Part shown: positions 1 through 13,426 of the stretch, in pieces
Numbering within the stretch: position 1 is the stretch's first letter
Layout of the letters: every line of letters starts with the position of its first letter
Virus record (IMG/VR): IMGVR_UViG_651053022_000002
Location: 1-13,426 of that record
Strand: one strand, 5' to 3'
Length of the DNA: 13,426 bases
From: a virus
Lineage: Duplodnaviria > Heunggongvirae > Uroviricota > Caudoviricetes
Notes under the pieces: model-generated
Databases searched by the model: none
Seen by the model: the letters and a program-made list of their open reading frames with translations, nothing else
What the model was told of the DNA's origin: nothing
Position numbers and translations under genes: made by a program

Positions 1-177
1 TTACTGTTGGCGCAGGGTACGGATACCCTCCCTGGCCTGTGCGATACAGGGCAACAGTGCTGCCGAATCTGTTTTATCCTCATCGTTGTCGAAGATAATT
101 CCCGATTCGCAGTCGATATTGTCCTGCAGCCACGTAATCAGAATATCCAGCGCTGTTTCCGTGGTTAATGATTTCAT
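1..177 (-). CDS. Small conserved protein (58 aa) downstream of the cbtA module; possibly DUF957/YpjJ-like
   Basis: ATG at 177..175 and TAA at 3..1, internal to the 181-aa ORF 1..546. Protein MKSLTTETALDILITWLQDNIDCESGIIFDNDEDKTDSAALLPCIAQAREGIRTLRQQ. Position matches the small gene that follows cbtA in CP4-type islands (from memory). No strong Shine-Dalgarno. Confidence 0.45.
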   Translation of the reverse strand: MKSLTTETALDILITWLQDNIDCESGIIFDNDEDKTDSAALLPCIAQAREGIRTLRQQ

Positions 178-193
178 GTTGTGAATTTCCGGA

Positions 194-682
194 TTACCAG
201 TCGAAAGTGGGTAAACCCGGCAGATATCCGGCACTGGCATCCAGATGAATGAGACTGACACCATAACACCGGATGAGTGTGACGACCAGACGACGGAACG
301 TTTTTGACAGCCCCAGGCGCTTAAGCCGCAGAACCGGGTATGACCACGTATCGGTACGTAACAGATAACCGGTACCGGTAAAATGAATCCATTCTGATTC
401 ACCGAAGTCACTGGTCTGGTGTGACAGCGAGTACAGCCAGGCGTTGTCCGTTTCCGTGATATGTGCGGTACTGCAGCGTATGCCGGTAAGGGCAACAAAT
501 GGTGGCGTGCAGTCTGCTGAGGTCCGGTCAGATTCATCAACAACACGAAGGGAGTAGCCGTTATCGCAGACCATGTTAATCAGTTCAGCGAGATTAACAC
601 CATCAATGTCAACGACAATGCGCCCCATGTTCAGCGCCTGCACGTTAACGCTGTCGGCTTCCAGCGTCAGGGCCAGTTTCAT
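194..682 (-). CDS. Hypothetical protein (162 aa), DUF5983-like partner downstream of cbtA
   Basis: ORF 194..682. GGAGG sits 7 nt upstream of the ATG at 682..680, inside the 3' end of cbtA, so the two genes overlap by 38 nt. Family name is recalled from annotation habit, not verified. Confidence 0.5.
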
Positions 683-1055
683 CGTTTCGCCTCCGGATGC
701 TTCCCAGGGTAATGTTATTTACCGTTCTGTAATTGTCGCGGATCATCAGGCCTGTTGCCCGGCGAGCCCGGAGGATATCGATGCTGTTTATTAACTGAGA
801 GTGGGTACAGGCGCTGAATCCCGGCAGGTCGGTACGTACCAGTGCGTATTTTTCCACGAGAAAGTTCACTGCATCACACAGTGAAATGCCTGCCTCAATA
901 TGCTGCTCAATCACACGTTCATCAGCGAACGGTGTGTCATTCAGCGTGAGGCCATAGTGCTGGTCCAGCAGTCGGGTGAGCAGTGTCTGCCAGATGGTGA
1001 CTGGAGACGGGCAGCACGATACCTCCCGTACATGCGTGTCGGGTAATGTTTTCAT
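645..1055 (-). CDS. cbtA: CbtA-family toxin of a type IV toxin-antitoxin system (YeeV/YkfI/YpjF-like), 136 aa
   Basis: Translation [103 protein letters not shown]... matches my recollection of E. coli YeeV across most of its length; the C-terminal tail is longer than the recalled ~124-aa form. Confidence 0.85.
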
Positions 1056-1144
1056 ACTGAAGATTTTCCTGATATGCAGAGATAAAAAATGGGACAGTGG
1101 CGTGGTGAAAACACCAGGCCGGAGCAGAAGGTTATTCTGGTGGT

Positions 1145-1513
1145 TTACTTTTTCGTTTCAGGTGTCGGATAAACAGCCAGATAAACGTAACCACAGGAGC
1201 CGAGGGTGTCGGCTTCACAGGTCAGCCCCTTCGCATACAGTGTCACGGTATGCTGATGGCGGGGATTCAGTTCACCACTGGTGAGCATTAATTTCAGTTG
1301 TTTCATCAGCAGCGGAAAGGCCTGGTCCAGAGGGTACGCATCCGCATCTCTGAACCGGCCTCTGATACCGGCACGGTCGGCAAGGTAATGCAACCGGTTA
1401 CCCTCCTGCACCAGACGGGCGCCGAAACAGGGCGTCACTGTGCAGGGTAGTCCCCACCAGGGATGGTCGTCATTGTCATCGGGATGCGTTGTCCCGGAAA
1501 GTGTGTCTGACAC
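1145..1513 (-). CDS. cbeA: CbeA-family antitoxin (YeeU/YfjZ-like), copy A, about 123 aa with a GTG start
   Basis: Core ...[35 protein letters not shown]...[12 protein letters not shown]...[43 protein letters not shown] is YeeU-like. GTG at 1513..1511 is preceded by GAGGA. The ORF-track extension to 1621 runs into an unrelated remnant. Sits 89 nt upstream of cbtA. Confidence 0.75.
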
Positions 1514-1562
1514 GATAAAATCCTCACAGAAAATCGGTGAATGATAGTTTAACGATGACGGG

Positions 1563-1665
1563 TCAGCCGGCGCGCAGACCGGCTTCGGTAAAGGTGTATT
1601 CGTTGATGAGCAGGACCTCATCCACAGCGGCGTCTGAGCTCTGCCAGTCGTACTCGTTTTCCGGG
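1563..1665 (-). pseudogene. 3' fragment of the 171-aa gene (duplicate of the 2479..2580 segment), not an independent gene
   Basis: ORF 1563..1772 ends ...[32 protein letters not shown], near-identical to the C-terminus of the 2479..2994 protein. Nucleotide similarity runs about 1561..1660 and then breaks. Confidence 0.5.
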
Positions 1666-1917
1666 TGACGGAACATCCAGCAGTCGGGTGAGCAGTGTCT
1701 GCCAGATGGTGACGGGAGACGGGCAGCGCGATGCCGCCCGTACGTGTATGCCTGCCTCAATATGCTGCTCAATCACACGTTCATCGGCAAACGGTGTGTC
1801 ATTCAGTGTGAGGCCATAGTGCTGGTCCAGCAGTCGGGACAGCAGTATCTGCCAGATTTCAACAGGAGACGGGCGAGAACTGGCCGCCTGCCCGGGTAAT
1901 ACAGGTAATGTTTTCAT
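1618..1917 (-). pseudogene. Chimeric cbtA remnant: 5' end of cbtA (about 57 codons) joined to a second partial copy of the cbtA 5' segment
   Basis: Translation begins [57 protein letters not shown] (cbtA N-terminus) and then re-enters ...[17 protein letters not shown]. The segment 1681..1746 is a near-copy of 970..1033. Confidence 0.6.
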
Positions 1918-2012
1918 ACTGAAGATTTTCCTGATATGCAGATATAAAAATGGAAAAGTGGCGTGGTGAAAACACCAGGCCGTAGCAGAAGGCTATTCTG
2001 GAGAGTTAATTT

Positions 2013-2190
2013 TTCATTTCGGGCGTCGGATAAACAGCCAGATAAACGTAATCACAGGAGCCCAGGGTATCGGCTTCGCAGGTCAGTCCTTTCGCATACA
2101 GTTCATTTCGGGCGTCGGATAAACAGCCAGATAAACGTAACCACAACTGCTGAGGGTATCGGCTTTGCAGGTCAGCCCTTTTGCATACAG
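2013..2190. repeat. Tandem direct repeat, 2 x 89 bp, diverged copies of the cbeA 3' end
   Basis: Copy 1 at 2013..2101 and copy 2 at 2102..2190 both start ttcatttcgggcgtcggataaacagccagataaacgtaa and end gcatacag; a third related copy lies at about 1160..1250 in cbeA copy A. Confidence 0.8.
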
Positions 2191-2463
2191 CGTGACGGTA
2201 TGCTGATGGCGGGGATTCAGTTCACCGCTGGTGAGCATGAGTTCCAGTTGTTTCATCAGCAGCGGAAAGGCCTGGTCCAGGTGGTACGCATCTGCATCGC
2301 TGAACAGGCCTCTGATACCGGCGCGGTCGGCAAGGTAATGCAACCGGTTACCCTCCTGCACCAGACGTGCCCCGAAACAGGGCGTCACGGTGCAGGGCAG
2401 TCCCCACCAGAGGCGGTCGTTATGGTCGTCGGGATAATTTGTCTCATGGAGTTTGTCTGACAC
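2083..2463 (-). CDS. cbeA: CbeA-family antitoxin, copy B (126 aa), with a C-terminus altered by the tandem repeat
   Basis: [99 protein letters not shown]... is YeeU-like. The protein ends ...PTPEMNCMRKD, whereas the adjacent repeat copy encodes the canonical-looking ...PTPEMKN stop. Confidence 0.75.
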   Translation of the reverse strand: MSDKLHETNYPDDHNDRLWWGLPCTVTPCFGARLVQEGNRLHYLADRAGIRGLFSDADAYHLDQAFPLLMKQLELMLTSGELNPRHQHTVTLYAKGLTCKADTLSSCGYVYLAVYPTPEMNCMRKD

Positions 2464-2478
2464 GATAAAGTCCTCAGG

Positions 2479-2994
2479 TCAGCCGGCGCGCAGACCGGCT
2501 TCGGTGAAGGTGTATTCGTTGATGAGAAGGGCCTCATCCACAGCGGCATCAGAGGTCAGCCTGTCGTACTCGTTTTCCAGCTGACGGTACAAGTCGCGCA
2601 GGGCTTCGCTGACAGCGGCTTCCGCATCGGCTGTCATAGCCTGACCAGTCGGACTGTTCCGGGTAACAGTGATATCCATGCTGTACGGATGGCAGTAACG
2701 TCCCCGGTGGTGGATTTCAGCCTGCAGTTGCCAGAAGTTACGTTTCTGCACCGCCTGCAGGGCATCCGCGATACGATGGAGTTCATGGTCCTGTGTGGCA
2801 TACTCCCGGAGCCTTCTGGCTGTTGCTGGCTGCCAGTGCCAGCGTCCTTCAAAACAGGCTCCGTCCCCCTGGCTGCAGAATCCGCTGAACCAGATGCACG
2901 CCTCTTCCATAAACCTGCCGTTGCTGAGCCGGAAAACGCGCTGGCGGAGGTCAATTCCGAAAATGCCACAGACCGCCCTGAAGTCCTCATACAC
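2479..2994 (-). CDS. Conserved hypothetical protein immediately upstream of cbeA (171 aa from a GTG); possibly disrupted at its 5' end
   Basis: ORF 2479..2994 begins at GTG 2994..2992; reading upstream in frame hits TGA at 3051..3049. An ATG-initiated ORF in another frame (ATGATG at about 3084, through a T7/A7 run at 3054..3060) covers the upstream sequence. Family not recognised. Confidence 0.45.
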   Translation of the reverse strand: MYEDFRAVCGIFGIDLRQRVFRLSNGRFMEEACIWFSGFCSQGDGACFEGRWHWQPATARRLREYATQDHELHRIADALQAVQKRNFWQLQAEIHHRGRYCHPYSMDITVTRNSPTGQAMTADAEAAVSEALRDLYRQLENEYDRLTSDAAVDEALLINEYTFTEAGLRAG

Positions 2995-3093
2995 GTTTTC
3001 ATACCAGTTGCTGTCAGCATGATGCTGACGGTACCAGTCGCGGGCTTTTCACGATAAAAAAACTTCGGCAATTTCATCATGATTTGAAACATT

Positions 3094-3117
3094 GGCACCC
3101 TGTTAGCAAGGGTGCCA
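3094..3117 (-). terminator. GC-rich hairpin (8-bp stem) at the par-module / TA-island junction; possible terminator after parR
   Basis: ggcaccct-gttagca-agggtgcc at 3094..3117, downstream of parR on the minus strand; the following U-tract is weak. Confidence 0.3.
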
Positions 3118-3165
3118 GAATGATGTGTTGGTCTGTATTTTATTAGTTCACATACAATTATCAGA

Positions 3166-3480
3166 TTATTCTGGGAATAAGGTCTGAATATTCTTTTTTA
3201 TTTTATAAAAATTGCATTCAACTCCGCTAGGCTGATTATCCTGGTATGTTTCCTTGATGCTAACGGTATTGAAGGGGAGGTTGTCCTCTGGCCATTCGGC
3301 CATCCAGTAGGCAAATGCTGGGTTGCGCTTTATGAGCGCTAGCCCAGCCAGAAAGGCCGCGCGTTGCGCGCGGCTGCGTTCGGAGGCTGGCAGGCTATCG
3401 AGGTAATTGCACGCCTCCTGTTCACTCTTGACGGCGGCGGGCTTCAGATAGAAACTTATCCGTCTGGTTGGTGTCGTCAT
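3166..3480 (-). CDS. parR: ParR-like centromere-binding protein of a type II (ParMR) partition system, 104 aa
   Basis: ATG at 3480..3478 lies 4 nt after the parM stop. MTTPTRRISFYLKPAAVKSEQEACNYLDSLPASERSRAQRAAFLAGLALIKRNP... resembles plasmid R1 ParR as I recall it (RRTIAFKL...LDSIPQGERSRLNRAALTAGLALY). The ORF-track extension to 3615 overlaps parM and is rejected. Confidence 0.75.
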   Translation of the reverse strand: MTTPTRRISFYLKPAAVKSEQEACNYLDSLPASERSRAQRAAFLAGLALIKRNPAFAYWMAEWPEDNLPFNTVSIKETYQDNQPSGVECNFYKIKKNIQTLFPE

Positions 3481-3484
3481 TGGT

Positions 3485-4444
3485 TTACTCCTTGTCCATT
3501 GCGTACAGCCCATTAACCAGAGCAAACTGTGGCACCCCGTCCGCGATGAAAGTCGCATTAACTCCGCAGACTTCGCGGATAGCGGGTGCCACAATCTCCG
3601 CCCCTCCACCGACAACCATCACCCGCCCGTAACCCGAAAAAACCGCCAGCGCGCGGATCACGCGTTGTTTCAGTGTTTCTTCCTTTTCACGAATAACCGC
3701 CATCAGGCTGGCGTAATGCGCGTCATTGTGGATGTGCTGGCGCAGCCAGGCTTCATCATGGCGATGTTCGATAATGGTATTGGCGATGTGGTGACTGGTG
3801 CGCATACCGTTAGTGGCCATCACCGACAGTACGGCATCGGCCATCAGGGAAACGCCTACGTGTGGATCGCAAAACACCTGGCTGATACCTGCCAGTTGCC
3901 CTTGAACCTTTGCCACATCCAGCGTGGTTCCGCCTAAATCCACAATCAGCAGGGATTCAAACGGACTCATGTCAGCCAGTGCTTTAAAGCCAGCCGGAAT
4001 GGATTCAGGCATAACCCGCACGTTACGGATAGTGAATGCTTCGCCGTTCTGGTATTCCACCGGGCGCATAACGTTCGCTTTTTTGCGGTTGATGTTGGCC
4101 ATGTCCGGCTGTGCGTTTGTGTCGAAATACTCGCTCAGTGGCAGGGTGACAACCACATCCACCTCCTGTGGCGTGATGCCTGATTTGACCAGCGCGTGAT
4201 GAATGGCGATTACATTCACATCGCTGTACTGGTATTGCGTGTCGGTCGTCTGGACAAAGCGATCGCTAACCGGATCAAAACCATAGCGCACGCCATCAAG
4301 CATGTAGTTCGCGGGCTGCATGCCACCGAACGGCGCAGACCATTCCGACTTGAAGCTGTTCGGGCTGATGGCGTTGCGGCGTTCGCCATTCTCAGTCCAT
4401 GCCAGCTTGATGTTGGTGGAGCCGTCGTCGATACAAATTTTCAT
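3485..4444 (-). CDS. parM: ParM/StbA-like actin-type plasmid segregation ATPase, 319 aa
   Basis: MKICIDDGSTNIKLAWTENG...ISPNSFKSEW...YSDVNVIAIHHAL...VVVTLPLSEY...LIVDLGGTTLDV... carries the actin-fold phosphate motifs (IDDGSTNIK, DLGGTTLD) and closely tracks my recollection of R1 ParM. AAGGAAAA Shine-Dalgarno precedes the ATG at 4444. Confidence 0.9.
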   Translation of the reverse strand: MKICIDDGSTNIKLAWTENGERRNAISPNSFKSEWSAPFGGMQPANYMLDGVRYGFDPVSDRFVQTTDTQYQYSDVNVIAIHHALVKSGITPQEVDVVVTLPLSEYFDTNAQPDMANINRKKANVMRPVEYQNGEAFTIRNVRVMPESIPAGFKALADMSPFESLLIVDLGGTTLDVAKVQGQLAGISQVFCDPHVGVSLMADAVLSVMATNGMRTSHHIANTIIEHRHDEAWLRQHIHNDAHYASLMAVIREKEETLKQRVIRALAVFSGYGRVMVVGGGAEIVAPAIREVCGVNATFIADGVPQFALVNGLYAMDKE

Positions 4445-4462
4445 GTCGCTTTTCCTTATGTT

Positions 4463-4590
4463 GATTAATTAATCGTTTACGGGATTCTGAAATCCCGTTT
4501 TTGCCTGTTTTGTGCGCGCTTCATATATCGCTGCGCGTTTTTTGCTCATTTACGGGATTCGTAAGTCCCGTTTCTGTCTGTTTTTTGTTT
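4463..4590. repeat. Centromere- or operator-like repeats: the AT palindrome gattaattaatc plus two copies (73-bp period) of a hairpin-containing unit
   Basis: gattaattaatc at 4463..4474. Unit A: acgggatt-ctga-aatcccgt at 4479..4498 followed by T-rich sequence. Unit B: acgggatt-cgta-agtcccgt at 4552..4571, same flanks (tttacgggattc...cccgttt...ctgtttt). Unit A is in the rep-parM intergenic region; unit B is inside the rep 3' coding end. Confidence 0.7.
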
Positions 4591-7343
4591 CCACTGGTCA
4601 GGCCACCCCGCAGCAGGTCTGCTTTGCGGCTGGCGCGTTCAGTGGTTTCACTGATTCTCTGTGCGTGCTCTGCGTCGCGGATGGCGCGCAGCATGTCAGA
4701 AAGCACGGTAACGGGTGTTTTCATGGTGTTCTGGCCCTGCTGAAGTGTGGATGCCAGGCGTGCGGCGGCTTCAGGGTCTGATGCCCCCAGCTGTGCCAGA
4801 TAGCTGGCGACCGGGTTATGGCGGATCTCCGTGCTGCTTACGCCATGATTACGGCTCAGGCGCTGCCAGAGCTGCGTGATTCGGCTGTCCGGGCGGGTAT
4901 CCGGTTTGCGTACAATTTCAAATCCCTGCGGTGCAATGATGCTGCCGTCAACGTACAGACTGCCGCCCCGTAACAGGTGCTGCATCTGTTGTTCACCGAT
5001 ATGCAGGCCGAGAGATTCAGCAGACTCCCGCCATTCTTTAGCGAGTAATTCGTGGTTATCAGGCAAAGGCCGCTGCTGTTTGCGGCTCTGTGTCCAGCTC
5101 TGCATTTCATCGCTGCTGTTTTTTGCCTGTTTGTCACGAAGCGAACGCATCAGCGCCCGGCGTTCGTGTCGTTTCAGTGAGCGCATCCATTCGTTCACTT
5201 CAACGCCGTCAGGGAGCTGCGGCCACGGTGCTGGCCGTTCTTCCGGCTGTTCTGTCCCGTTGTTGTCCGTTTCCTGTACACGGGGACAGTTATTGCCACG
5301 AGTCCAAGGGGCGGCAGGGCCGCCCTGAAGGTCAAAACCATTTTCGCGGGCGCTGTCTTCCGCTTCCGGTTTACGTCTTACCAGCTTCCAGTTATCCGGA
5401 TGCGTGCACACACGGGAGGATTCCCCGATGAGTGGTGACCAGATCCCGTAAATCTGTACGCTCTGTTCGCCGTAATCGTTCAGCTCATCTGCGAGGTCGT
5501 AGGCGGTGCGAATCAGGTAGTCCTTGCGTGGAACAAGCACGCCACCCTGTTTTTCAATGTAGGTGGCAAAACACCCGGCATCGGCGGCAGCGAGTACCGC
5601 ATCCATTGCATCATCTTTCAGCCGTTGCGGGCCTTCCGGATTGCGTGCCATCTGGCTGGCAAGGCGGCGCAGTTCACGCCACACCTGACGGGAGGGGATG
5701 CCAAAGAACTGGAACTGACGGACCCGGTGAAGGCGCGCCCAGCCGATGGCGCGCTCCACGCTCTCGGCCATTGATTTTCCGGTTTCGTGGTCCACGCGTG
5801 GCTTGCCCGTTTTCGGGTCGATGCCATCCACGGCGCGGCTGTCCAGGTTCTTTCCGATGTAGGTGGCGATGTAGCTGGTTGGCGTGCCTTTTGAGCCGTC
5901 GACATACTCCACCTTAAAGCGCGGAGTAATATCATTGCCCAGCTCGTGGCGGTCTTCCTGAATGGCAATATCGCGGGTATGGGACACAATGGTGTCGATT
6001 TCTTCCGGATGTGCAAAGACCATCATATGCCAGTGCACGGTGCCGTCATGATGAGGCTCCACCGTGCGGATGCCATACCAGCGCAGGCCGTCGCGGTTCA
6101 GTTTTTTGCGGACCGCCGCAAAAAACGTGTTAACCAGGTAATCGCTGGAGTCGCGCATTGTGGCCCCGTTCCATTTGGGATTCGGATGACCGTTCTCCGT
6201 TGTGGCGTGGTATTTTGACGGGCAGGTGACAGTCAGAAACACCGCTTTGTCGCCACGGGCTTCGGCCAGAAGTTCCAGTCCCTTCATGGTGGCCATCATT
6301 TCTGCCTTACGGTGAACCGGGTTACTTACTCCCGCGTAATACACTGTCTCGAGATCAATCGTGAACCCGTCTTCATTTTCCAGCATGAAACTTTTCAGGA
6401 AATCGCGTGTTTTCTCGCGCTGTGCGCGAAACTCGCTTAACGCGTCCTGGCTCAGATAGGGTGATGTTTTTCTGGAAACCAGACAGGCGGCGCGGAGTTG
6501 TTCTTCTCTCCACTCGCAACGTAACAGCCACAGTTTGCGTTTCCACCATTCCGCACAGGTCAGGCGAAGGATTGCGCCCGGCAGCAGCTCCGTGTCCGGT
6601 TCGTTCCTCCGGTCTTTGTCTGTTGTCAGTGCGTCATAATGTGGAGGCATGGCGTGCAGGTGTAACGCCATGCGGGCCAGCATCTGATACGCCTTCAGGG
6701 TTACATCCATGGTCAGCTCGCCATCGGTCGCGCCAAAGCCATCGCAGAGTTTTTCGAAGGTGCTGCTGAACATCGCCGCCGTCATGGTGGCCAGCGTCTG
6801 TATCTGGTGTTTGTTGAGCTGCGGCAGGTAAAGCAAATCGTCCAGGCGTTCGCGTCCGGCAAGGGAGCGATAACCCGGTGTCAGCCAGCGTCCGTCAGTG
6901 CTATCCAGACGTTCGAATATTTTGCGCAGGGTTCCGCGTGCATAGCGTTCCGCCTGCCAGCTCTTTTTGCCTTTCCGGCGATCGGCTTCCTGTTTTTTGC
7001 GCAGGAAGGAGAGGTGGCGAATAAGCGGATCGCGCAGATAGGACGGCAGCAGGCGCAGCGAGGCCATGGCTTCATCCACCGCGCCACGTGCCTGTTTTCT
7101 GGCGTCTCCTGCCAGTGTGATGGTTTTGTCCTGTTTTTCCTGTGCGTCCAGGCTTTTATTAATCAGGTTGCCCAGCGGCGTGGCTGAGAACGCCGCATCA
7201 GCCATTTCCTGGCGGCGCTCGTTCTCTGCCCGGTAGGCATCCAGCCAGGAGGAAAGCGCGGATTCAGGAGCGGGGATCCCCGTTCCTTCACGCCCCACTG
7301 CGTGGCGCGGTTGTTGCCAGTCCCTGAGGTACTCTGCCGTCAT
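4521..7343 (-). CDS. Rolling-circle replication initiator (HUH endonuclease, phage P2 gpA / phiX174 gpA superfamily), 940 aa
   Basis: Contains the HUH metal-binding motif (TVHWHMMVF) and, about 50 residues later, the paired-tyrosine motif SYIATYIGKNLD (YxxxY) typical of superfamily-I rolling-circle Reps. No Walker A motif was seen, so it is not a P4 alpha-type primase-helicase. Confidence 0.85.
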   Translation of the reverse strand: MTAEYLRDWQQPRHAVGREGTGIPAPESALSSWLDAYRAENERRQEMADAAFSATPLGNLINKSLDAQEKQDKTITLAGDARKQARGAVDEAMASLRLLPSYLRDPLIRHLSFLRKKQEADRRKGKKSWQAERYARGTLRKIFERLDSTDGRWLTPGYRSLAGRERLDDLLYLPQLNKHQIQTLATMTAAMFSSTFEKLCDGFGATDGELTMDVTLKAYQMLARMALHLHAMPPHYDALTTDKDRRNEPDTELLPGAILRLTCAEWWKRKLWLLRCEWREEQLRAACLVSRKTSPYLSQDALSEFRAQREKTRDFLKSFMLENEDGFTIDLETVYYAGVSNPVHRKAEMMATMKGLELLAEARGDKAVFLTVTCPSKYHATTENGHPNPKWNGATMRDSSDYLVNTFFAAVRKKLNRDGLRWYGIRTVEPHHDGTVHWHMMVFAHPEEIDTIVSHTRDIAIQEDRHELGNDITPRFKVEYVDGSKGTPTSYIATYIGKNLDSRAVDGIDPKTGKPRVDHETGKSMAESVERAIGWARLHRVRQFQFFGIPSRQVWRELRRLASQMARNPEGPQRLKDDAMDAVLAAADAGCFATYIEKQGGVLVPRKDYLIRTAYDLADELNDYGEQSVQIYGIWSPLIGESSRVCTHPDNWKLVRRKPEAEDSARENGFDLQGGPAAPWTRGNNCPRVQETDNNGTEQPEERPAPWPQLPDGVEVNEWMRSLKRHERRALMRSLRDKQAKNSSDEMQSWTQSRKQQRPLPDNHELLAKEWRESAESLGLHIGEQQMQHLLRGGSLYVDGSIIAPQGFEIVRKPDTRPDSRITQLWQRLSRNHGVSSTEIRHNPVASYLAQLGASDPEAAARLASTLQQGQNTMKTPVTVLSDMLRAIRDAEHAQRISETTERASRKADLLRGGLTSGNKKQTETGLTNPVNEQKTRSDI

Positions 7344-7349
7344 AGTGAT

Positions 7350-7715
7350 TTACTTCGTCATGCCATTCAGGGTGTCGCGGCAGACTGTAGCCAGCCGCTG
7401 AATTTCCAGCACGGTGTCTTCTGTGTCGGCATGGCGATGTGTGATGCGGATGCTGTCGGCAATCACATCGACGATTGCAGAGGATGGGCGCTGGTAAATG
7501 CCAATAACGGACGGGGTGCCACCTTCAATGCGGTAAAGCCTGTAATTTCCCTCGTGGCTGTCAATCATGTAGCGACCATCAATAACAATCTTTCCGTCAG
7601 CGAGCTGCGGTACAGGCAGGGATTTCAGGTACATGTCATAACGATCACGCACGCGAGCGGCAAGATCACGTTCTGTATTGAGCAGGTATTCAAGAAAGTC
7701 GTTGGCGAGAATCAT
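7350..7715 (-). CDS. Hypothetical protein (121 aa) immediately upstream of rep
   Basis: ORF 7350..7715 with AAGAGGA 7 nt before the ATG; its stop lies 6 nt before the rep start, suggesting co-transcription. Confidence 0.6.
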   Translation of the reverse strand: MILANDFLEYLLNTERDLAARVRDRYDMYLKSLPVPQLADGKIVIDGRYMIDSHEGNYRLYRIEGGTPSVIGIYQRPSSAIVDVIADSIRITHRHADTEDTVLEIQRLATVCRDTLNGMTK

Positions 7716-7787
7716 TGCGGCAATCCTCTTGTTACAGATGTGCGAAGGCCTCCCGCCGCAAGGTGCAGGAAAGGCCCGGAACAGGAA

Positions 7788-8018
7788 TTAATGGAGTTTG
7801 TTTTGCTGCTGGATGAGCTGTTGAAGCTCGTGCAGATCATCCGCCAGATAGCTGAAAACAGAGGCGGAATAAATGTTTGATAGTGCGTGGCTGCGCTCAT
7901 GCAGCATATTGATGTGCATGATTTGCGCGACGCGTGATGCGCGGGAAAGTCTGCGGTTGATTTCAGTCTGGATGTGACGACGCTCCGCGATAGCGCGGTG
8001 CTGTTTGCGGTTTGCCAT
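7788..8018 (-). CDS. Small basic protein (76 aa), possible DNA-binding regulator
   Basis: ORF 7788..8018, MANRKQHRAIAERRHIQTEINRRLSRASRVAQ..., Arg/Lys-rich N-terminus; AAGGGG Shine-Dalgarno upstream. Confidence 0.5.
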   Translation of the reverse strand: MANRKQHRAIAERRHIQTEINRRLSRASRVAQIMHINMLHERSHALSNIYSASVFSYLADDLHELQQLIQQQNKLH

Positions 8019-8196
8019 GGTGTGGCCCCTTGTGTAGTAAGTTGTGAAAACTCACCATCCAGAGCTGCGAAACTGTGGGTGGCGAGACGTACGAGGTTCG
8101 CAGTACCGGCTACACAAGAACCCGGCCCGACCGAAGTCGGCCCCGTACGCCCCGCCATAATTCTGACGCGAAAAAAACGTGGCAATACAGTACGCA

Positions 8197-8218
8197 CAAA
8201 AAAACCGCTGGCGCGGTT
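8197..8218 (-). terminator. Candidate intrinsic terminator on the minus strand inside the early operon
   Basis: Minus strand reads aaccgc-gcca-gcggtt followed by TTTTTTT (plus coordinates 8203..8218 stem-loop, 8197..8202 T-tract), about 120 nt after the 8341..8640 gene. Confidence 0.5.
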
Positions 8219-8340
8219 GTGCGCTTGTGTAGTCAGCAGGCTGCGAAACCCGGCACCCGTTTTATGAGGTGCAGCGGAAATGTAACCTGACTGATTGCGG
8301 CATGGCAAGCGGTTTTTTTGTGTGTGCATGCTCTGGTTTC

Positions 8341-8640
8341 TTACTGGTTCAGAAAAAAATCAAAAACCTTGTCAATACGTTGCAGCAGCTCTTGCTGTAT
8401 TGCTTCCGGCGTTTCCGGTTCGCCTGGCACCTCCAATGTCGCGCAGAAATCAGCGATTTCATGATGGAGCGTCAGGCGAATGGCAGGAGCCGTGGTTCTG
8501 GCGTGCTCCAGCTCATCCAGCAATGCCAGCGCAGCAGACGGCGAGAGCATTGCGCGAAATGCCAGTAATTTTTGAGGTGTTGCCATTCGTTGCAGGGCAA
8601 ATGCCAGTTCGCGTAGCTTCTGGTGGTTGATGGTGCTCAT
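8341..8640 (-). CDS. Hypothetical protein (99 aa)
   Basis: ORF 8341..8640 with GAAGGAAG Shine-Dalgarno; its start overlaps the upstream gene's stop by 4 nt. Confidence 0.6.
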   Translation of the reverse strand: MSTINHQKLRELAFALQRMATPQKLLAFRAMLSPSAALALLDELEHARTTAPAIRLTLHHEIADFCATLEVPGEPETPEAIQQELLQRIDKVFDFFLNQ

Positions 8641-8903
8641 GTTCTGGCTTCCTTCAGTAGCTGGTTAAACATGTGAGTAAGTGGATTGCTACACCCGAAC
8701 GGCATCGGGTTTACGTGGTAAGAAGCCTGGCCTCCAGTTTTGCGAGCGCGACCACCTGTGCTGCGGTTTGTTCTGATGACTAAGCCGCCGCGCCAAAGTT
8801 GGCGTAACTCAGCATTAATGGCTGTGGTTGGAGTATTCAGTGCTGCGGCGATCTCTCCGCCGCTACACCCCGGATGAGTAGCGATGTAGTCCAGAATGGT
8901 CAT
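8637..8903 (-). CDS. Hypothetical protein (88 aa), possible winged-helix DNA-binding protein
   Basis: ORF 8637..8903, AGGAG 6 nt before the ATG; MTILDYIATHPGCSGGEIAAALNTPTTAINAELRQLWRGGLVIR is an HTH-like segment; 4-nt overlap with the neighbouring gene. Confidence 0.6.
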   Translation of the reverse strand: MTILDYIATHPGCSGGEIAAALNTPTTAINAELRQLWRGGLVIRTNRSTGGRARKTGGQASYHVNPMPFGCSNPLTHMFNQLLKEART

Positions 8904-9103
8904 CTGCGTGGCTCCTGTACCTGTCGGATAAGGTTTACCCGCGCCACATTAGTGGCGCAGAAGTAAGTGCCGTCAGTGAGGTAGATGTGGTGTGCATCCT
9001 TTTCCGAACGATGTTTGTCGATAGTGGTAATCAGGCGTTCGTCGACCTCGTATTCGCGCCCTCTGGAGGTAAAGCGAACGACGGGAAAATGCTTAATTGC
9101 CAT
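8900..9103 (-). CDS. Hypothetical protein (67 aa)
   Basis: ORF 8900..9103 with AAGGGGG Shine-Dalgarno. Confidence 0.55.
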   Translation of the reverse strand: MAIKHFPVVRFTSRGREYEVDERLITTIDKHRSEKDAHHIYLTDGTYFCATNVARVNLIRQVQEPRR

Positions 9104-9126
9104 TGCGCCCCCTTTGTCCAGTAACT

Positions 9127-9537
9127 CTATGCGTTAAATACGGTGCACTGTGCGTCATCAATGAATGCGACTTGAGAGCGCTCTATCAGGCGGAGATTTG
9201 TCAGAATTTCTGATTCCCTTATGGGGTGAGGAGTGATCAGGTATTTATCCTGTAACCCGGCGATAATGGTGTATCGCTGTAGCTCCGAGCCAATTGTGTA
9301 AATAAGGCGTCCGGTGTTAGACAAATCCAGTCCGGTGACTGGTTGTGTTCTGAGAACCGCCAGTTCAGCATCCTGTTTTGCGATAATTTCGGCTGCTTCT
9401 GCCGTGACTCTTGCGACTATCAGTGTGTGGGTTGCGACGTCCATATGATTATTTGCTATGGCTTTTTTCGCTACTTCGTTTTCTGTCTTTGAAATTTCTT
9501 TCAGTGCTCTGATGATACCTTCTTCTTTTGCGTGCAT
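9127..9537 (-). CDS. Hypothetical protein (136 aa)
   Basis: ORF 9127..9537 with GGAGA 7 nt before the ATG; lower G+C than the rep region. Confidence 0.6.
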   Translation of the reverse strand: MHAKEEGIIRALKEISKTENEVAKKAIANNHMDVATHTLIVARVTAEAAEIIAKQDAELAVLRTQPVTGLDLSNTGRLIYTIGSELQRYTIIAGLQDKYLITPHPIRESEILTNLRLIERSQVAFIDDAQCTVFNA

Positions 9538-9630
9538 TTTTGTATCTCCGTTATTTGCGTGTGCGAATACCTCCGTTAATACGGATGGTTTTCACGTTTT
9601 CTTATTTAATTTGATGTTTTATTTGTATCG

Positions 9631-9744
9631 TTATTCACCAGTGAAAAAACGTTCAATCTTTTTTACTGAATGAATAATTCGCACAATGCCAATTGCGCAG
9701 ACCACTGAAATAATCAGAACAATCCATGACATAAATATACTCAT
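9631..9744 (-). CDS. Unlisted small hydrophobic peptide (37 aa), probably a single transmembrane helix
   Basis: My own translation: MSIFMSWIVLIISVVCAIGIVRIIHSVKKIERFFTGE. The ATG at 9744..9742 overlaps the upstream stop at 9743..9741 (ATGA coupling); GGGGA lies 7 nt upstream. Too short for the supplied ORF track. Confidence 0.4.
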   Translation of the reverse strand: MSIFMSWIVLIISVVCAIGIVRIIHSVKKIERFFTGE

Positions 9745-9983
9745 GCGATATTCCCCAGCTTATACGGTTCAATATGTTCCCCGCATTCTGCGGCACAGAT
9801 CAGCTCGGAAAGTTCGTTAAGTGCATCCAGATCATCAGCGTAAAAAGCCACGTCATACAGACTCCGGATTGCCCTGGTCAATGAGTCACGGGCTGCACGT
9901 TCAGCATGAGCGCCTGATGCACTTAAGCGAAAATAAAAACGCTCAAGTGCTTTGTTAATGAGAGTTTTATATTCTTTGCCCAT
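9741..9983 (-). CDS. Hypothetical protein (80 aa from the internal ATG)
   Basis: ORF 9741..10034 trimmed to the ATG at 9983..9981 (MGKEYKTLINKALERFYFRL...), which avoids overlap with the upstream gene. Confidence 0.5.
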   Translation of the reverse strand: MGKEYKTLINKALERFYFRLSASGAHAERAARDSLTRAIRSLYDVAFYADDLDALNELSELICAAECGEHIEPYKLGNIA

Positions 9984-9994
9984 CGCAACGCCCT

Positions 9995-10273
9995 TTAATC
10001 TGCTTTCTGAATTTCTGCTTCTGAATCCATACAAATAATTTCGATATAGGGTTCATCGCCATTAGTCTTACGTGCTTTTTCCGCTTCGCTAATGATTTCG
10101 TGTACAGTCTGGTACGGAAGTTCTACGGTCAGGCGCGTGCCGTTCAGATAAACGTAAGTAGCTGCATTTTTTTCGGATGGAACAACTCCGTCAATGGCTG
10201 ATGCGCGTAATAACAGTTCACCGCGAAAATCAATAAAACGGATAAATACACCTTGTGCATGCTCTTTGGTCAT
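9995..10273 (-). CDS. Hypothetical protein (92 aa from the internal ATG)
   Basis: ORF 9995..10333 trimmed to the ATG at 10273..10271 (MTKEHAQGVFIRFIDF...), with AGGTG upstream and a 10-nt gap to the preceding gene. Confidence 0.5.
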   Translation of the reverse strand: MTKEHAQGVFIRFIDFRGELLLRASAIDGVVPSEKNAATYVYLNGTRLTVELPYQTVHEIISEAEKARKTNGDEPYIEIICMDSEAEIQKAD

Positions 10274-10283
10274 AAAGCACCTG

Positions 10284-10634
10284 TTATAAATCAGCCTGTT
10301 TAATAAAACTTTGCCCGTGAAGCAGACGATCAACCGTGCGAAGTGCTTCGTATAATGTGAAATCCTGCCCGAACTGATTGTCGCCGTTGCTCAGTGCAAA
10401 AATGCGGTTTCCGGTAAATGGGTTGCGCTGGCATCTGTGAACCACGATTCCTGCTTTTTCAATCAGCCAAGTGTGTTCACCAATTTGTTTTACTGGGTAG
10501 CCATCCGGCGTTGCGTGTGTTTCGCTCAGGCTGTAGCGAGAGTTGCTACGTGATGCACTGGTAGCGAAACGGTTAGCATGGCGTTCCGCACCGTTGCGGA
10601 AGCGCTGCTGTGAAGAATTGCGCTGTAGTTTCAT
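10284..10634 (-). CDS. Hypothetical protein (116 aa), first gene of the leftward early operon
   Basis: ORF 10284..10634; the ATG at 10634 sits just downstream of a palindrome-containing promoter region. Confidence 0.55.
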   Translation of the reverse strand: MKLQRNSSQQRFRNGAERHANRFATSASRSNSRYSLSETHATPDGYPVKQIGEHTWLIEKAGIVVHRCQRNPFTGNRIFALSNGDNQFGQDFTLYEALRTVDRLLHGQSFIKQADL

Positions 10635-10645
10635 ATTAAAACTCT

Positions 10646-10737
10646 GTACCTTCGGTAAGGTGTACTCGTGTCACCTTGTATTGATTTGTGGTATTTTTTT
10701 TGTGTGTCTAGGACTTGGACTGGCCGGTTCAGGTCCT
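10646..10737. promoter_or_regulatory. Divergent regulatory region with two inverted repeats
   Basis: accttCGGTaaggt at 10648..10661 (5-bp arms); imperfect inverted repeat aggacttggac / gttcaggtcct at 10710..10737 (9 of 11 positions complementary, 6-bp spacer). Lies between the minus-strand early operon and the plus-strand 63-aa ORF. Confidence 0.35.
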
Positions 10738-10771
10738 GGCTTATGTTTAATTAAATTGTTAAGAGGTTTTC

Positions 10772-10963
10772 ATGTCAGAAGATAAAAAAGTTGTTAATTT
10801 GTTGAGTGAACTTAGTGCTGCTCTGGATAACATTAACCCTCCCAGGGTAAAAACGACGGGTGATAAAGACGCATTAAACACAGAGATTCATATATTACTG
10901 GCGTTAGTAACTGACAAAATTCAGCGTAAATACCCACCTGTCACACAACTGGTTGATTTTTAA
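10772..10963 (+). CDS. Small hypothetical protein (63 aa), AT-rich, the only plus-strand gene in the interior
   Basis: ORF 10772..10963, MSEDKKVVNLLSELSAALDNINPPRVKTTGDKDALNTEIHILLALVTDKIQRKYPPVTQLVDF, with AAGAGG 6 nt before the ATG; convergent with the 141-aa gene. Confidence 0.5.
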   Translation: MSEDKKVVNLLSELSAALDNINPPRVKTTGDKDALNTEIHILLALVTDKIQRKYPPVTQLVDF

Positions 10964-10969
10964 TTTGAT

Positions 10970-11392
10970 TTATGCCGGGCTGCTCCCGGCATCTTCTACC
11001 TGCCATAATGTCTCGTCACCTGATAGAGCAAAACGAAATGAGTGAAGTATATCCCCCCGAGAGAAGCTCACGGCTACAGCTGCGGGAAAGTCAAATATAA
11101 TCCCACCTTCATTTTTAAAACGATTACGCAATTGATAGGCTATCGGTTTGATTTGTGCAGGAAGAGTATCTATATCTCTTCCATTGACAACAGAATCTTT
11201 GTTTTCAAGTACTGATTTAGCGATTAGATATAGATGCCAGTAACTGGTTACAATTGTTACTCCTGTGATGTGTCGTAAATTAATTGCAATTCGTCCGTTA
11301 TTATGTTTTTCCGCAAGGTATTTCAGGTTATCAATTAATGCTTGGTCATTTTTTGAAATAGTTATTGTGAAATCTGACGTGTTTGTTTTCAT
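10970..11392 (-). CDS. Hypothetical protein (141 aa) in an AT-rich segment; candidate cargo (moron) gene
   Basis: ORF 10970..11635 trimmed to the ATG at 11392..11390, 4 nt after the upstream stop. Protein MKTNTSDFTITISKNDQALIDNLKYLAEKHNNGRIAINLRHITGVTIVTSYWHLYLIAKSVLENKDSVVNGRDIDTLPAQIKPIAYQLRNRFKNEGGIIFDFPAAVAVSFSRGDILHSFRFALSGDETLWQVEDAGSSPA. I counted 23/60 G+C in line 11101..11160 versus 41/60 in rep line 5701..5760. Confidence 0.6.
   Translation of the reverse strand: MKTNTSDFTITISKNDQALIDNLKYLAEKHNNGRIAINLRHITGVTIVTSYWHLYLIAKSVLENKDSVVNGRDIDTLPAQIKPIAYQLRNRFKNEGGIIFDFPAAVAVSFSRGDILHSFRFALSGDETLWQVEDAGSSPA
10972..10992 (+). terminator. Hairpin (8-bp stem) just after the 63-aa ORF; possible terminator overlapping the 3' end of the convergent 141-aa gene
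   Basis: atgccggg-ctgct-cccggcat at 10972..10992, 9 nt after the TAA at 10961..10963; the following tract (cttct) is only weakly U-rich. Confidence 0.3.
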
Positions 11393-11396
11393 ACGA

Positions 11397-11918
11397 TTAG
11401 TTGCCTCTGTTGTTTCTGAGTTGGTCCAGTTTTGAGCTTCTGCCTGTATAAACTCGCTTACCGTTAATGGTCTGGCAGTCTTCTTTATTAGCTGGAGAGA
11501 ACTTCCTTTTCTGGCGGTCATACGTCCAGTAACTTTTCCAGTTGTGCCATTCTGGGGGCTCGTGCTCTGGTAGCTCATCAGCCAACTTGTCCCACTCTTT
11601 GGCGTTAAACCACCATACTCCGTCTGAGTTTTCATCTTCCGGGTTTGTGCGCGTCTTGTGTCCCGGCATTTGACCGCGATGAATGGCTACGCGCAGTGCA
11701 GATTTTGTTAGCCCAATATATGCCGCGCCTTTTTCCAGAGAGCAAAGCCCGGCGATCGGACCATCCAGCCGCAAAGTCGCTCCTTTTTTGTAGGAACGCT
11801 TTTTCTTGTTTTCTTCGTGCTCGTCGTCGTTGGCGGCATCAATGGATCCGCTGAGTGCGTCACTTTCCTGAAGTGGTTGGTGGTCAGATAACTCTTTATC
11901 GGCAATGAAGTCCCGCAT
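11397..11918 (-). CDS. Excisionase/Cox-like HTH protein (173 aa) with an acidic N-terminus, divergent from the repressor
   Basis: ORF 11397..11918 with AAGAGGA before the ATG. The segment GAAYIGLTKSALRVAIHRGQMPGHK...GVWWFNAKEWDKL looks like an Xis/AlpA/MerR-type HTH with wing; its position mirrors cox/apl in P2/186-type switches. Confidence 0.6.
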   Translation of the reverse strand: MRDFIADKELSDHQPLQESDALSGSIDAANDDEHEENKKKRSYKKGATLRLDGPIAGLCSLEKGAAYIGLTKSALRVAIHRGQMPGHKTRTNPEDENSDGVWWFNAKEWDKLADELPEHEPPEWHNWKSYWTYDRQKRKFSPANKEDCQTINGKRVYTGRSSKLDQLRNNRGN

Positions 11919-11977
11919 TTGTTATCCTCTTGCGTTGGTGCGCTTGTCGCGCCTTGTGATGGTTTGTTTTGGCTTGT

Positions 11978-12001
11978 AAAGATAACCAAAAGGTTATCTT
12001 T
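11978..12001. promoter_or_regulatory. Perfect palindromic operator (10-bp arms, 4-bp spacer) in the divergent promoter region
   Basis: aaagataacc-aaaa-ggttatcttt at 11978..12001; a further half-site ggttatctt at 12025..12033 overlaps the regulator start codon. Confidence 0.6.
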
Positions 12002-12022
12002 GTGCGAGAGGTTAATACTCAA

Positions 12023-12364
12023 ATGGTTATCTTGTCAATAGACTACGCAAAAAAGTTACGTCAGATACGTAAGGCGGAAGGGTTAACACAAAAGCAGTTT
12101 GCGGATATTACTGGGTTGTCTTTGGCAACCATAAGGAATTACGAATCGGGGCAAAAGAACGCTAGAGCAAAAATCGTTGAGGCGGTTCTGCAAGTCGATC
12201 GCTTTGAAAAATACATGCTGTGGCTAATAAAAGATAAGACGCTACCTGTCGCCGGGCAGATTGCTCCGGCTCTCTCTCTTGATGGATCTATTCAGTCGGA
12301 GGGCGATCAGGTTTCAATCGGTATTACCCAAAAATCACCCCGATCAGGCCGCAATGTTGGCTGA
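12023..12364 (+). CDS. XRE-family helix-turn-helix transcriptional regulator (immunity repressor-like), 113 aa
   Basis: The segment LRQIRKAEGLTQKQFADITGLSLATIRNYESGQK is a canonical XRE/Cro-C1 HTH. First in-frame ATG at 12023 (the ORF track begins at a TTG at 11969). Same orientation as int, divergent from the Cox-like gene. Confidence 0.75.
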   Translation: MVILSIDYAKKLRQIRKAEGLTQKQFADITGLSLATIRNYESGQKNARAKIVEAVLQVDRFEKYMLWLIKDKTLPVAGQIAPALSLDGSIQSEGDQVSIGITQKSPRSGRNVG

Positions 12365-12433
12365 CTCTACACATTGAGCGAATTACATATCGCAAGGAGT
12401 GTTTAGTTAATTTATCCGTTGGAGGGGCTAATC

Positions 12434-13426
12434 ATGTCGATTAAGCAACTCAAAGACGGACGTTATCAGGTCGATGTCAGACCGCAGGGGGCGGAAGGAA
12501 AGCGGATTCGAAAAATCTTTGCCCTGAAATCAAAGGCTCAGGAGTTTGAGAAGTATGTGTTACAGAACTTTCATGACAAGCCATGGCAGGCTAAGCCAGC
12601 TGATCAGCGGCGATTATCAGAGCTGCTTGATGCGTGGTGGATGCTTGATGGGCGTAATCAGGCTTACGGGGATAGCTACAGGGTTAGGCTAGGGAAGGTT
12701 GTTCGTGAAATGGGAGATCCTCGCGCCAGTCAGATGACGCGAAAATTTATGCTTGAATATCGGTCAGAGAAATTACAGGCCGGATTAATGCCGTCCAGTA
12801 TTAATCGTGACTTATGCGTACTGTCTACCATGTTCACGGTGCTGATTGAAGCTGAGGTCTTTCACAACGCGAACCCTGTACGCGGTATACGAAAACTGAA
12901 AGTTCAGAACACAGAGATGGCCTTTCTTTCTGATGATGAGATTGAACGGCTTCTTGAGCGACTGGAGGGTGATGTGCGTCGTGTTGCCATTCTGTGTCTT
13001 TCTACTGGTGCCCGATGGAGTGAAGCATCGGAACTACGTGGAGAGCATATCGTTGGCAACCGGGTGACGTTCTTTAACACCAAAAACGGAAAATCCCGTT
13101 CGGTTCCTGTGGCGGATTCGGTCGTGCCTCTGATTAAAACCCGTCGAACGGGGTTATTGTATCAGGTTGATTATCTGAAGTTCCGGGAGATTCTTCAGGA
13201 GGTGAAACCGGATTTGCCGAAGGGGCAGGCTACGCATGTCATGCGTCATACATTTGCCACACACTTTATGATGAATGGCGGAAATATTGTTACGTTGCAA
13301 CGAATCCTGGGGCACGCAACGATTCAGCAAACAATGACGTACGCTCATTTTTCGCCGGACTTTTTACTGGACGCGATCAACTTTAATCCGCTGGCTGAAA
13401 GTGTCCATAAACTGTCCATCGATTAG
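12434..13426 (+). CDS. int: Tyrosine site-specific integrase, 330 aa
   Basis: GGAGGGG lies 7 nt before the ATG at 12434. N-terminal arm-binding-like region (MSIKQLKDGRYQVDVRPQGAEGKRIRKIF...), catalytic signatures (ARWSEASELR; HVMRHTFATHF; LGHATIQQTMTYAHF). The stop codon is the last three bases of the window. Confidence 0.9.
   Translation: MSIKQLKDGRYQVDVRPQGAEGKRIRKIFALKSKAQEFEKYVLQNFHDKPWQAKPADQRRLSELLDAWWMLDGRNQAYGDSYRVRLGKVVREMGDPRASQMTRKFMLEYRSEKLQAGLMPSSINRDLCVLSTMFTVLIEAEVFHNANPVRGIRKLKVQNTEMAFLSDDEIERLLERLEGDVRRVAILCLSTGARWSEASELRGEHIVGNRVTFFNTKNGKSRSVPVADSVVPLIKTRRTGLLYQVDYLKFREILQEVKPDLPKGQATHVMRHTFATHFMMNGGNIVTLQRILGHATIQQTMTYAHFSPDFLLDAINFNPLAESVHKLSID

Follow-up and report, generated by a model that had tools for sequence, protein, structure and literature searches.

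P2 C-type repressors have been described as binders of non-palindromic direct repeats (PMC2995052, PMC1904268, PMC1904263), while the crystal structure of P2 C showed a symmetric dimer resembling proteins that bind palindromes (PMC2995052). In a 2011 survey (Nilsson et al., PMC3448106), the prophage PhiECO5 of E. coli UTI89 was placed in tentative immunity class IX, and the "group 2" Cox proteins were larger; operators and function were left undefined for these classes. The locus analyzed here lies in a stretch of viral DNA of 13,426 nucleotides (IMG/VR record IMGVR_UViG_651053022_000002, positions 1 to 13,426; hereafter the window), which, judged by its sequence, is the early region of a P2-like (Peduoviridae) E. 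coli prophage. It consists of the divergent genes of a repressor C and a 173-amino acid (aa) Cox protein and the spacer between them. The locus is an immunity switch of the P2 type, widespread and annotated before; it appears to be a variant of this known system, departing from the described family norm in the putative dyad-symmetric operators of C and in the long, two-tailed Cox. A P2-type switch in which C acts on two dyad operators, O1 and O2, and Cox on phased boxes was the best explanation of the locus, with a probability of roughly 0.75.

The window shared with WPhi (immunity class III) the order int-C/cox, the -35 hexamer TTGACA of the Pe promoter at the C start, and a C protein with 50.6% identity. 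In both, the Pe spacer holds one repressor site and a second follows downstream of +1 (PMC1904268, PMC1904263), at a distance of about three helical turns (WPhi, 34 bp; window, 33 bp). The operator sequences differed (heteroimmune), and the WPhi sites have been described as 10-bp direct repeats, whereas the distal operator of the window is a perfect dyad. In addition, the intergenic spacer was 152 bp in WPhi and 104 bp in the window, and Cox had 90 aa (annotated coding sequence) against 173 aa. P2 (2XCJ, 4LHF) has the same gene order, a homologous C, the same Cox fold, face-to-face Pe and Pc promoters with the Pe -35 over the C start codon, and cox-boxes at a spacing of 10-11 bp over Pc and at attP (PMC3936717). 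P2 differed in the length of C (99 aa vs. 113 aa here), in that of Cox (91 aa vs. 173 aa) and in the box itself (TTAAAG/CNCA vs. (G)SYTTGT). Coliphage 186 also has face-to-face promoters, its Cox/Apl-type dual repressor-excisionase acts on direct repeats one helical turn apart (PMC7498355), and its CI binds inverted repeats. However, no two-domain CI (~190 aa) of the 186 kind was present here, the repressor being of the small P2 C type, and no cII was found after cox, where the open reading frame (ORF) had no family match in Pfam, PHROGs or NCBIfam. A sequence-only reading of the window had proposed a switch of the P2/186 type; it held in outline, the P2 part being borne out and the 186 part not, as the repressor is small and single-domain and both a CI-type repressor and cII are missing.

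The same reading had placed a perfect 24-bp palindromic operator between a divergent XRE regulator and the 173-aa gene. Repeat search confirmed the location and the arms: AAAGATAACC (11978-11987) and GGTTATCTTT (11992-12001) were 100% complementary over 10 bp and separated by 4 nt. The spacer AAAA is non-symmetric, so the element is strictly a perfect 10-bp inverted repeat and no 24-bp palindrome. The word GGTTATCTT occurred exactly three times in the 13.4-kb window, at 11979-11987 (-), 11992-12000 (+) and 12025-12033 (+). The last copy, already recognized as a further half-site over the regulator start codon, appears to belong, as the conserved arm, to a second dyad, O1, which is imperfect: its proximal arm is perfect and its distal arm matched at 4/7 positions. 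In a search of the window for the 18-bp dyad GATAACCnnnnGGTTATC, allowing up to 3 mismatches, only 11981-11998 and 12014-12031 matched, and the repeat search showed O1 and O2 to be direct repeats of each other with a spacing of 33 bp. The simplest reading is that of two putative dyad operators 33 bp apart, a perfect O2 and an imperfect O1. By chance, 35/300 dinucleotide shuffles of the 13.4 kb also had a perfect inverted repeat with arms of 10 bp or more, which is thus not rare; within the 122 bp of the switch region, even arms of 8 bp or more were rare (186/20000 shuffles). The features of the region are listed in Table 1.

Table 1. Features of the switch region and their positions in the window.
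Feature	Position	Strand	Basis
Long Cox gene, 173 aa	11397-11918	-	Pfam Phage_Cox, PHROG 23196, AlphaFold2 model, fold match
cox Shine-Dalgarno sequence GAGG, 7 nt upstream of ATG 11918	11926-11929	-	sequence reading
Candidate Pc promoter, low confidence (TTGGTG, 17 nt, GATGGT, TGT before it)	11935-11963	+	position, analogy to annotated P2 Pc, sequence reading
Putative Cox boxes, four (G)(S)YTTGT direct repeats starting at 11943, 11953, 11963 and 11973	11943-11977	+	phased-repeat scan
O2 operator (putative), inverted repeat AAAGATAACC-aaaa-GGTTATCTTT, core 18-bp dyad 11981-11998	11978-12001		sequence, repeat search, family comparison
Pe -10 hexamer TAACCT, 18-nt spacer (inferred)	12009-12014	-	family column frequencies
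O1 operator (putative), imperfect dyad AATACTC-aaat-GGTTATC, in the 18-nt Pe spacer	12014-12031		18-bp dyad search
C immunity repressor, P2 C type, 113 aa	12023-12364	+	PDB homology, Pfam HTH_3, alignment
Third exact GGTTATCTT copy, overlapping the G of the C ATG (12023-12025)	12025-12033	+	exact word search
Pe -35 hexamer TTGACA, in codons 4-6 of C	12033-12038	-	same position as annotated P2 Pe -35 and WPhi TGTCAA
Tyrosine integrase, second gene of the lysogenic (Pc) operon	12434-13426	+	Pfam Int_N and Phage_integrase; deposited annotation

Comparison of the window with seven diverged or recombinant E. coli versions of the region (L004-L010) indicated to which regulator the palindrome belongs. 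The prophage of strain 154 (L004), with a diverged Cox and left spacer, had an O2 of the window type (AAAGATAACC-nnnn-GGTTATCTTT) and the GGTTATCTT copy at the C start. In L005 and L006, where Cox and the left spacer were also diverged, the inner arm bases of O2 were altered on both sides with the symmetry kept (L005: GATACTC...GAGTATC), and the copy at the C start was GGTTATC or GAGTATC. UMNK88 (L008) and UTI89 (L009) showed 97% identity to the window over 11850-11977, carrying CTTCACC-ctgt-GGTGAAG at O2 and GGTGAAC at ATG+2. N51 (L010), with the Cox and left spacer of L004, carried TGTCG-aaatta-CGACA at O2 and TTCGACAC at the C start. The similarity of UMNK88 and UTI89 to the window ended near 11977, so that the exchange breakpoint falls on the left edge of the palindrome, and the DNA-binding half of C was different in both. 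In prophages with a 97-99% identical Cox and another C, the palindrome and the third copy were thus replaced together. The same palindrome was also found with different Cox variants, and the Cox and C variants paired in several combinations. Since palindrome and third copy were replaced with C while Cox stayed constant, both travel with C and not with Cox, and behave in this comparison as putative C operators; the sequence-only reading had allowed for binding by either regulator. PhiECO5 of UTI89 shares Cox, the Cox-side spacer, the integrase family and the overall architecture with the window, whereas the DNA-binding half of its C and both operators (GGTGAAG type) are replaced; the immunity specificity of the window is therefore a sister one. 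At its C-terminal end, C was near-identical over ~30 residues (SLDGSIQSEGDQVSIGITQKSPRSGRNVG; window 12275-12364) across the L004-L010 prophages whose C DNA-binding halves differed. With the tail constant and the DNA-binding half variable, the exchangeable immunity cassette is limited to the part between the left edge of O2 and about codon 85 of C. A fourth C site, GTTATC at 11921-26 beside the cox start, was considered and rejected, being conserved in prophages with unrelated C types; it more likely belongs to the cox ribosome-binding region.

The identification of the XRE regulator as an immunity repressor was upheld by PDB search (phmmer), in which residues 9-89 matched 2L49/2XCJ, "C protein", with an E-value of 1.1e-14. 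Its identity to P2 C, a helix-turn-helix protein with five helices, was 35.5%, and the family alignment showed the GQIAPAL and FxKY..W motifs shared with P2 C-type repressors. The gene int begins 70 nt downstream of C on the same strand. The TTG at 11969 given by a mechanical ORF list was rejected as the regulator start, the real start being ATG 12023.

Because a strict scan found no promoter, the promoters were placed by homology to P2 and WPhi and by family column statistics. By this homology, they would face each other despite the divergence of the genes. For the family comparisons, 80 further loci with a C homologue (one genome per species) were retrieved, so that 90 loci were examined in all. 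In 68/90 loci, an exact TGTCAA was present between -25 and +30 relative to the C start. Alignment of 56 non-redundant loci on the -35 hexamer gave (T/A)A(T/A)ATT as the consensus of the -10 (positions 24-29), and the best Pe spacer was 18 nt in 26 loci and 17 nt in 19. In L011-L090, most P2-type C genes embed the opposite-strand Pe -35 TTGACA in their first codons (ATGTCAA = Met-Ser-...); the N-terminus of the repressor is thus constrained by the promoter it represses. The Pc candidate was poorly conserved in L004. Transcription would begin near 12001-12003 (-) from Pe and near 11970 (+) from Pc.

The putative Cox boxes adjoining the palindrome were exactly 10 bp apart and overlapped the expected position of Pc. 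Over 25 kb and both strands, nowhere else did four or more YTTRT follow one another in phase, and 0/100 shuffles had such a run. The 11-mer TGTTTTGGCTT (11965-11975) had one further exact copy in the 25 kb, 28 nt after the int stop, and this copy sits in a similar phased array of TTTGT, TTTGT, CCTGT and CTTAT (L001 14134-14167), at the expected place of the phage attachment arm. In 10/62 loci, the spacer on the cox side had words of 10 nt or more in common with the 160 nt that follow int, compared with 1/62 mismatched pairs. The segment 11943-11977 stayed with Cox when C was exchanged. Since P2 Cox and 186 Apl bind phased boxes, this array, and not the palindrome, was assigned to Cox and is likely its site.

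The 173-aa protein appears, from its homologues and its structural model, to be a real, conserved and long member of the Cox family. The domain search agreed with its earlier description as Cox/Xis-like: residues 58-129 matched Pfam PF10743 (Phage_Cox) at profile positions 11-86 of 87 with 31.2 bits (cut-off 27.5), and PHROG 23196 was matched over the full length. The protein consists of an acidic disordered N-terminal tail (~1-45), a winged-helix core (~50-130) including PPEWHxW, and a basic C-terminal extension (131-173). The unusual length and the acidic region ahead of the helix-turn-helix were recognized before, and the net charge of residues 1-44 was indeed -5 (family median -7); the basic extension, with a charge of +7 (family median +8), was not part of that description. 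P2 and WPhi Cox aligned to residues ~52-131, PPEWHxW aligning with W..W of their oligomerization tail. Compared with these, the long Cox has an extra ~50 aa at the N-terminus (disordered, acidic) and ~40 aa at the C-terminus (basic), and so departs from the family norm of about 80-90 aa without such regions.

Homologues of the long Cox, 64 in number, were found in Escherichia, Shigella, Yersinia, Salmonella and Serratia, most full-length ones having 166-192 aa. The N-terminal MxxFIADKELSD was conserved in 45 of the homologues, and the long proteins also keep the variable acidic linker, the winged-helix core and a Trp-rich EPPEWHNWKSYWTYDRQKRKF segment. The subfamily is narrow, with 24 matches at E <=0.001 among 1.8 billion cluster representatives. 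Substitutions in codons 1-48 were skewed to third positions (L004 was left out of these counts, as an indel shifts the ungapped comparison), which shows that the N-terminal extension is translated but fast-evolving. The CATTTGTTATCCTC sequence around the cox Shine-Dalgarno was kept in all related loci. An AlphaFold2 model built from 45 close homologues was unusable (predicted local distance difference test, pLDDT, 43); after distant homologues were added, the core became usable (pLDDT 76-89), with residues 1-40 disordered and a small C-terminal beta-sheet at moderate confidence. The top Foldseek match of this model was P2 Cox 4LHF (E 2.4e-4, probability 1.00, target template-modeling score 0.68 over 78/79 residues), followed by excisionases. 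A PDB sequence search with the long Cox, alone or as a profile, gave no relevant entry, and NCBIfam holds no model for it. The subfamily extends the Cox/Xis fold by two oppositely charged tails; at a guess, the tails gate filament formation or DNA wrapping, or contact another partner.

The working of the switch would then be as follows, with all binding, the promoter start sites, the dimer stoichiometry and the roles of the Cox tails inferred. The 113-aa C would bind as symmetric dimers to the two 18-bp dyads, about three helical turns apart. O1 (12014-31) would fill the Pe spacer between the -35 (12038-33) and the -10 (12014-09), and O2 (core 11981-98, arms 11978-12001) would cover about +1 to +24 of the Pe transcript. 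Occupation of both would switch Pe off, and with it cox and the replication genes, and lysogeny would be kept. As the converging Pc transcript has O2 in its leader too, C at high levels could dampen its own synthesis. If Pe fires, the 173-aa Cox would be made and could polymerize on the four or more 10-bp-phased YTTGT boxes (11943-77) over Pc, turning off C and int. The similar array beside int, in the attachment-site arm, may be used by Cox to direct excision.

The homologies, positions, repeat statistics, operator-C covariation and independence of the Cox module were computed, and several points weigh against the model built on them. The C proteins of P2, P2 Hy dis and WPhi are reported to recognize direct repeats (PMC1904268, PMC2995052), and the P2 operators, in the same order as those of the WPhi layout, are 8-bp direct repeats 22 bp (two turns) apart without a dyad. 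The strict sigma-70 scan of 11700-12250 returned no promoter, and the proposed Pe -10 (TAACCT) and Pc were only weak matches to consensus. The array on the attachment-site side contains one imperfect box (CCTGT). Direct hhalign comparison of the long Cox with P2 Cox was weak (E 0.003, probability 10%). L005 and L006 have symmetric changes at the inner arm positions of O2 but the other variant in O1, a pattern that an RNA or DNA hairpin explains equally well.

The direct-repeat paradigm of the family (PMC2995052) leads to the alternative that C reads only the direct repeats at 11992-12000 and 12025-12033, the left arm of the palindrome being incidental or otherwise used. The pair ATAACCAAAAGGTTATCTT/ATACTCAAATGGTTATCTT, spaced by 33 bp around the Pe -10, mirrors the 10-bp half-sites of WPhi, which are 34 bp apart and flank the -10 (PMC1904268), and formally fits the published description of the operator as two direct repeats around the Pe -10 or -35; yet each copy is also the arm of a dyad (perfect in O2, 4/7 in O1). 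The wider family argued against this alternative. Of 72 non-redundant operator regions, 26 contained, no more than 75 nt from the TGTCAA hexamer on its cox side, a perfect inverted repeat with arms of >=7 bp and a spacer of up to 6, an approximately 10-fold enrichment over shuffles (mean 2.5, max 7). An inverted repeat together with a further copy of the proximal arm beside the hexamer was present in 13/72 (shuffles: mean 0.08, max 1). The arms co-varied symmetrically with the C type, and O1 kept dyad symmetry too: over 11 independent immunity types, its distal arm fitted the ideal partner at 50/75 positions, where ~20 were expected (P ~6e-11). WPhi O1 itself can be read as AGTCACC-aata-GGTtACT, a 6/7 dyad abutting the Pe -35; this is our reading of the sequence and not a published claim, and such a dyad would fit the reported binding of WPhi C to a single "half-site". 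Recognition of direct repeats alone was accordingly considered unlikely.

WPhi O2 lies within the inverted repeat TCAAAAGGT-12 nt-ACCTTTTGA (L002 822-852 and 866-883 for the WPhi sites), and WPhi-like C loci of other genera (L018, L020, L024 and L026) have similar CCCGAAAAG...CTTTTCGGG repeats.

The second alternative is that the palindrome acts mainly as an RNA hairpin or DNA cruciform, either as a 5' stem-loop stabilizing the Pe transcript or as a structure of the Pc leader modulating C and int. Stable stems are predicted on the Pe strand (-11.9 kcal/mol) and on the Pc strand (-15.9 kcal/mol), the predicted Pe start puts the stem at the very 5' end, the changes in L005 and L006 are compensatory and symmetry-preserving, and the WPhi-like loci have a different inverted repeat (TCAAAAGGT-12-ACCTTTTGA) at the same place. 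However, a hairpin leaves unexplained that the third copy and the dyad in the promoter spacer change in step with the repressor. In addition, the switch gave no Rfam match at the gathering threshold or at E up to 1, and a terminator scan of 11700-12250 found none, there being no T-run for termination. As the main function, a hairpin therefore appeared still less probable than recognition of direct repeats; as an additional function it is plausible, and the two roles are compatible.

That the palindrome, lying between the two genes, is the operator of Cox, or is shared by Cox and C as in lambda CI/Cro, was judged highly improbable, since the same Cox (97-99%) occurred with unrelated palindromes and different Cox variants with the same palindrome, and since Cox-family proteins bind phased direct repeats (PMC3936717, PMC7498355), an array of which adjoins the palindrome. 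In lambda the two regulators compete for the same dyads, whereas here the palindrome tracks C and a separate array tracks Cox.

P2-type C repressors may be ordinary dyad-site binders in general; this extension of the two-dyad model is tentative and has somewhat less than an even chance of being right. If true, the puzzle of a symmetric dimer on direct repeats would come from only one arm of each of two dyads being well conserved in P2 and WPhi, and the prophage of the window and its relatives would be natural cases with a perfect distal dyad. About a third of the relatives, together with the window, show clean dyads where P2 and WPhi have "half-sites", and these natural operator-repressor pairs are useful for specificity studies. 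No description of dyad operators for the P2 C-type family was found in the literature searched, which is weak evidence, as that literature included few papers from subscription journals.

Genome comparison is consistent with an E. coli prophage: the stretch 11300-12450 showed 100% identity to three deposited P2-like E. coli phage records and was carried by 324/5426 complete E. coli genomes, chromosomal in every case. The deposited annotation of the identical genes reads Cox family DNA-binding protein, helix-turn-helix protein or immunity repressor, and phage integrase. Elsewhere in the window are other P2-like early genes and one for a replication endonuclease of the P2 gpA type (Pfam Phage_GPA, E 5e-131). 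The prophage is common in clinically important E. coli lineages including ST131, so that its immunity type and exchangeable C/operator cassette matter for superinfection exclusion and prophage induction in these strains.

Directly after cox, the ORF at 10970-11392 (- strand) encodes 140 aa from ATG 11392, the start used by the deposited annotation, and had no significant match in Pfam, PHROGs or NCBIfam. It occupies the position of orf78 in P2 and of cII in 186, and is swapped for other small ORFs in related prophages.

The region 7788-8272 (- strand) looks like an RNA-controlled anti-repressor module in the P2-like early operon. It contains a C4 antisense RNA (RF01695, 83 bits) at 8075-8162 and an isrK Hfq-binding RNA (RF01394, 65 bits) at 8198-8272. 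Directly downstream of these RNAs, a 76-aa ORF (7788-8018) matched the Pfam "Derepression protein family" (PF25738, 32.7 bits), and a deposited record marks an ash-family pseudogene within the region. The C repressors of other P2-like prophages may be the target of this module.

The longest inverted repeat of the window was located inside the gpA gene at 6101-6126, with perfect 11-bp arms (GTTTTTTGCGG-accg-CCGCAAAAAAC); it could be origin-related or form an internal bidirectional terminator-like hairpin. Adjoining gpA, the segment 3166-4444 (- strand) encodes a ParM actin-like segregation ATPase (StbA_N E 1e-82, ParM_N E 1e-68) and a Plasmid_stab_B protein, a plasmid-type partition cassette that is unusual cargo in an integrating P2-like prophage.

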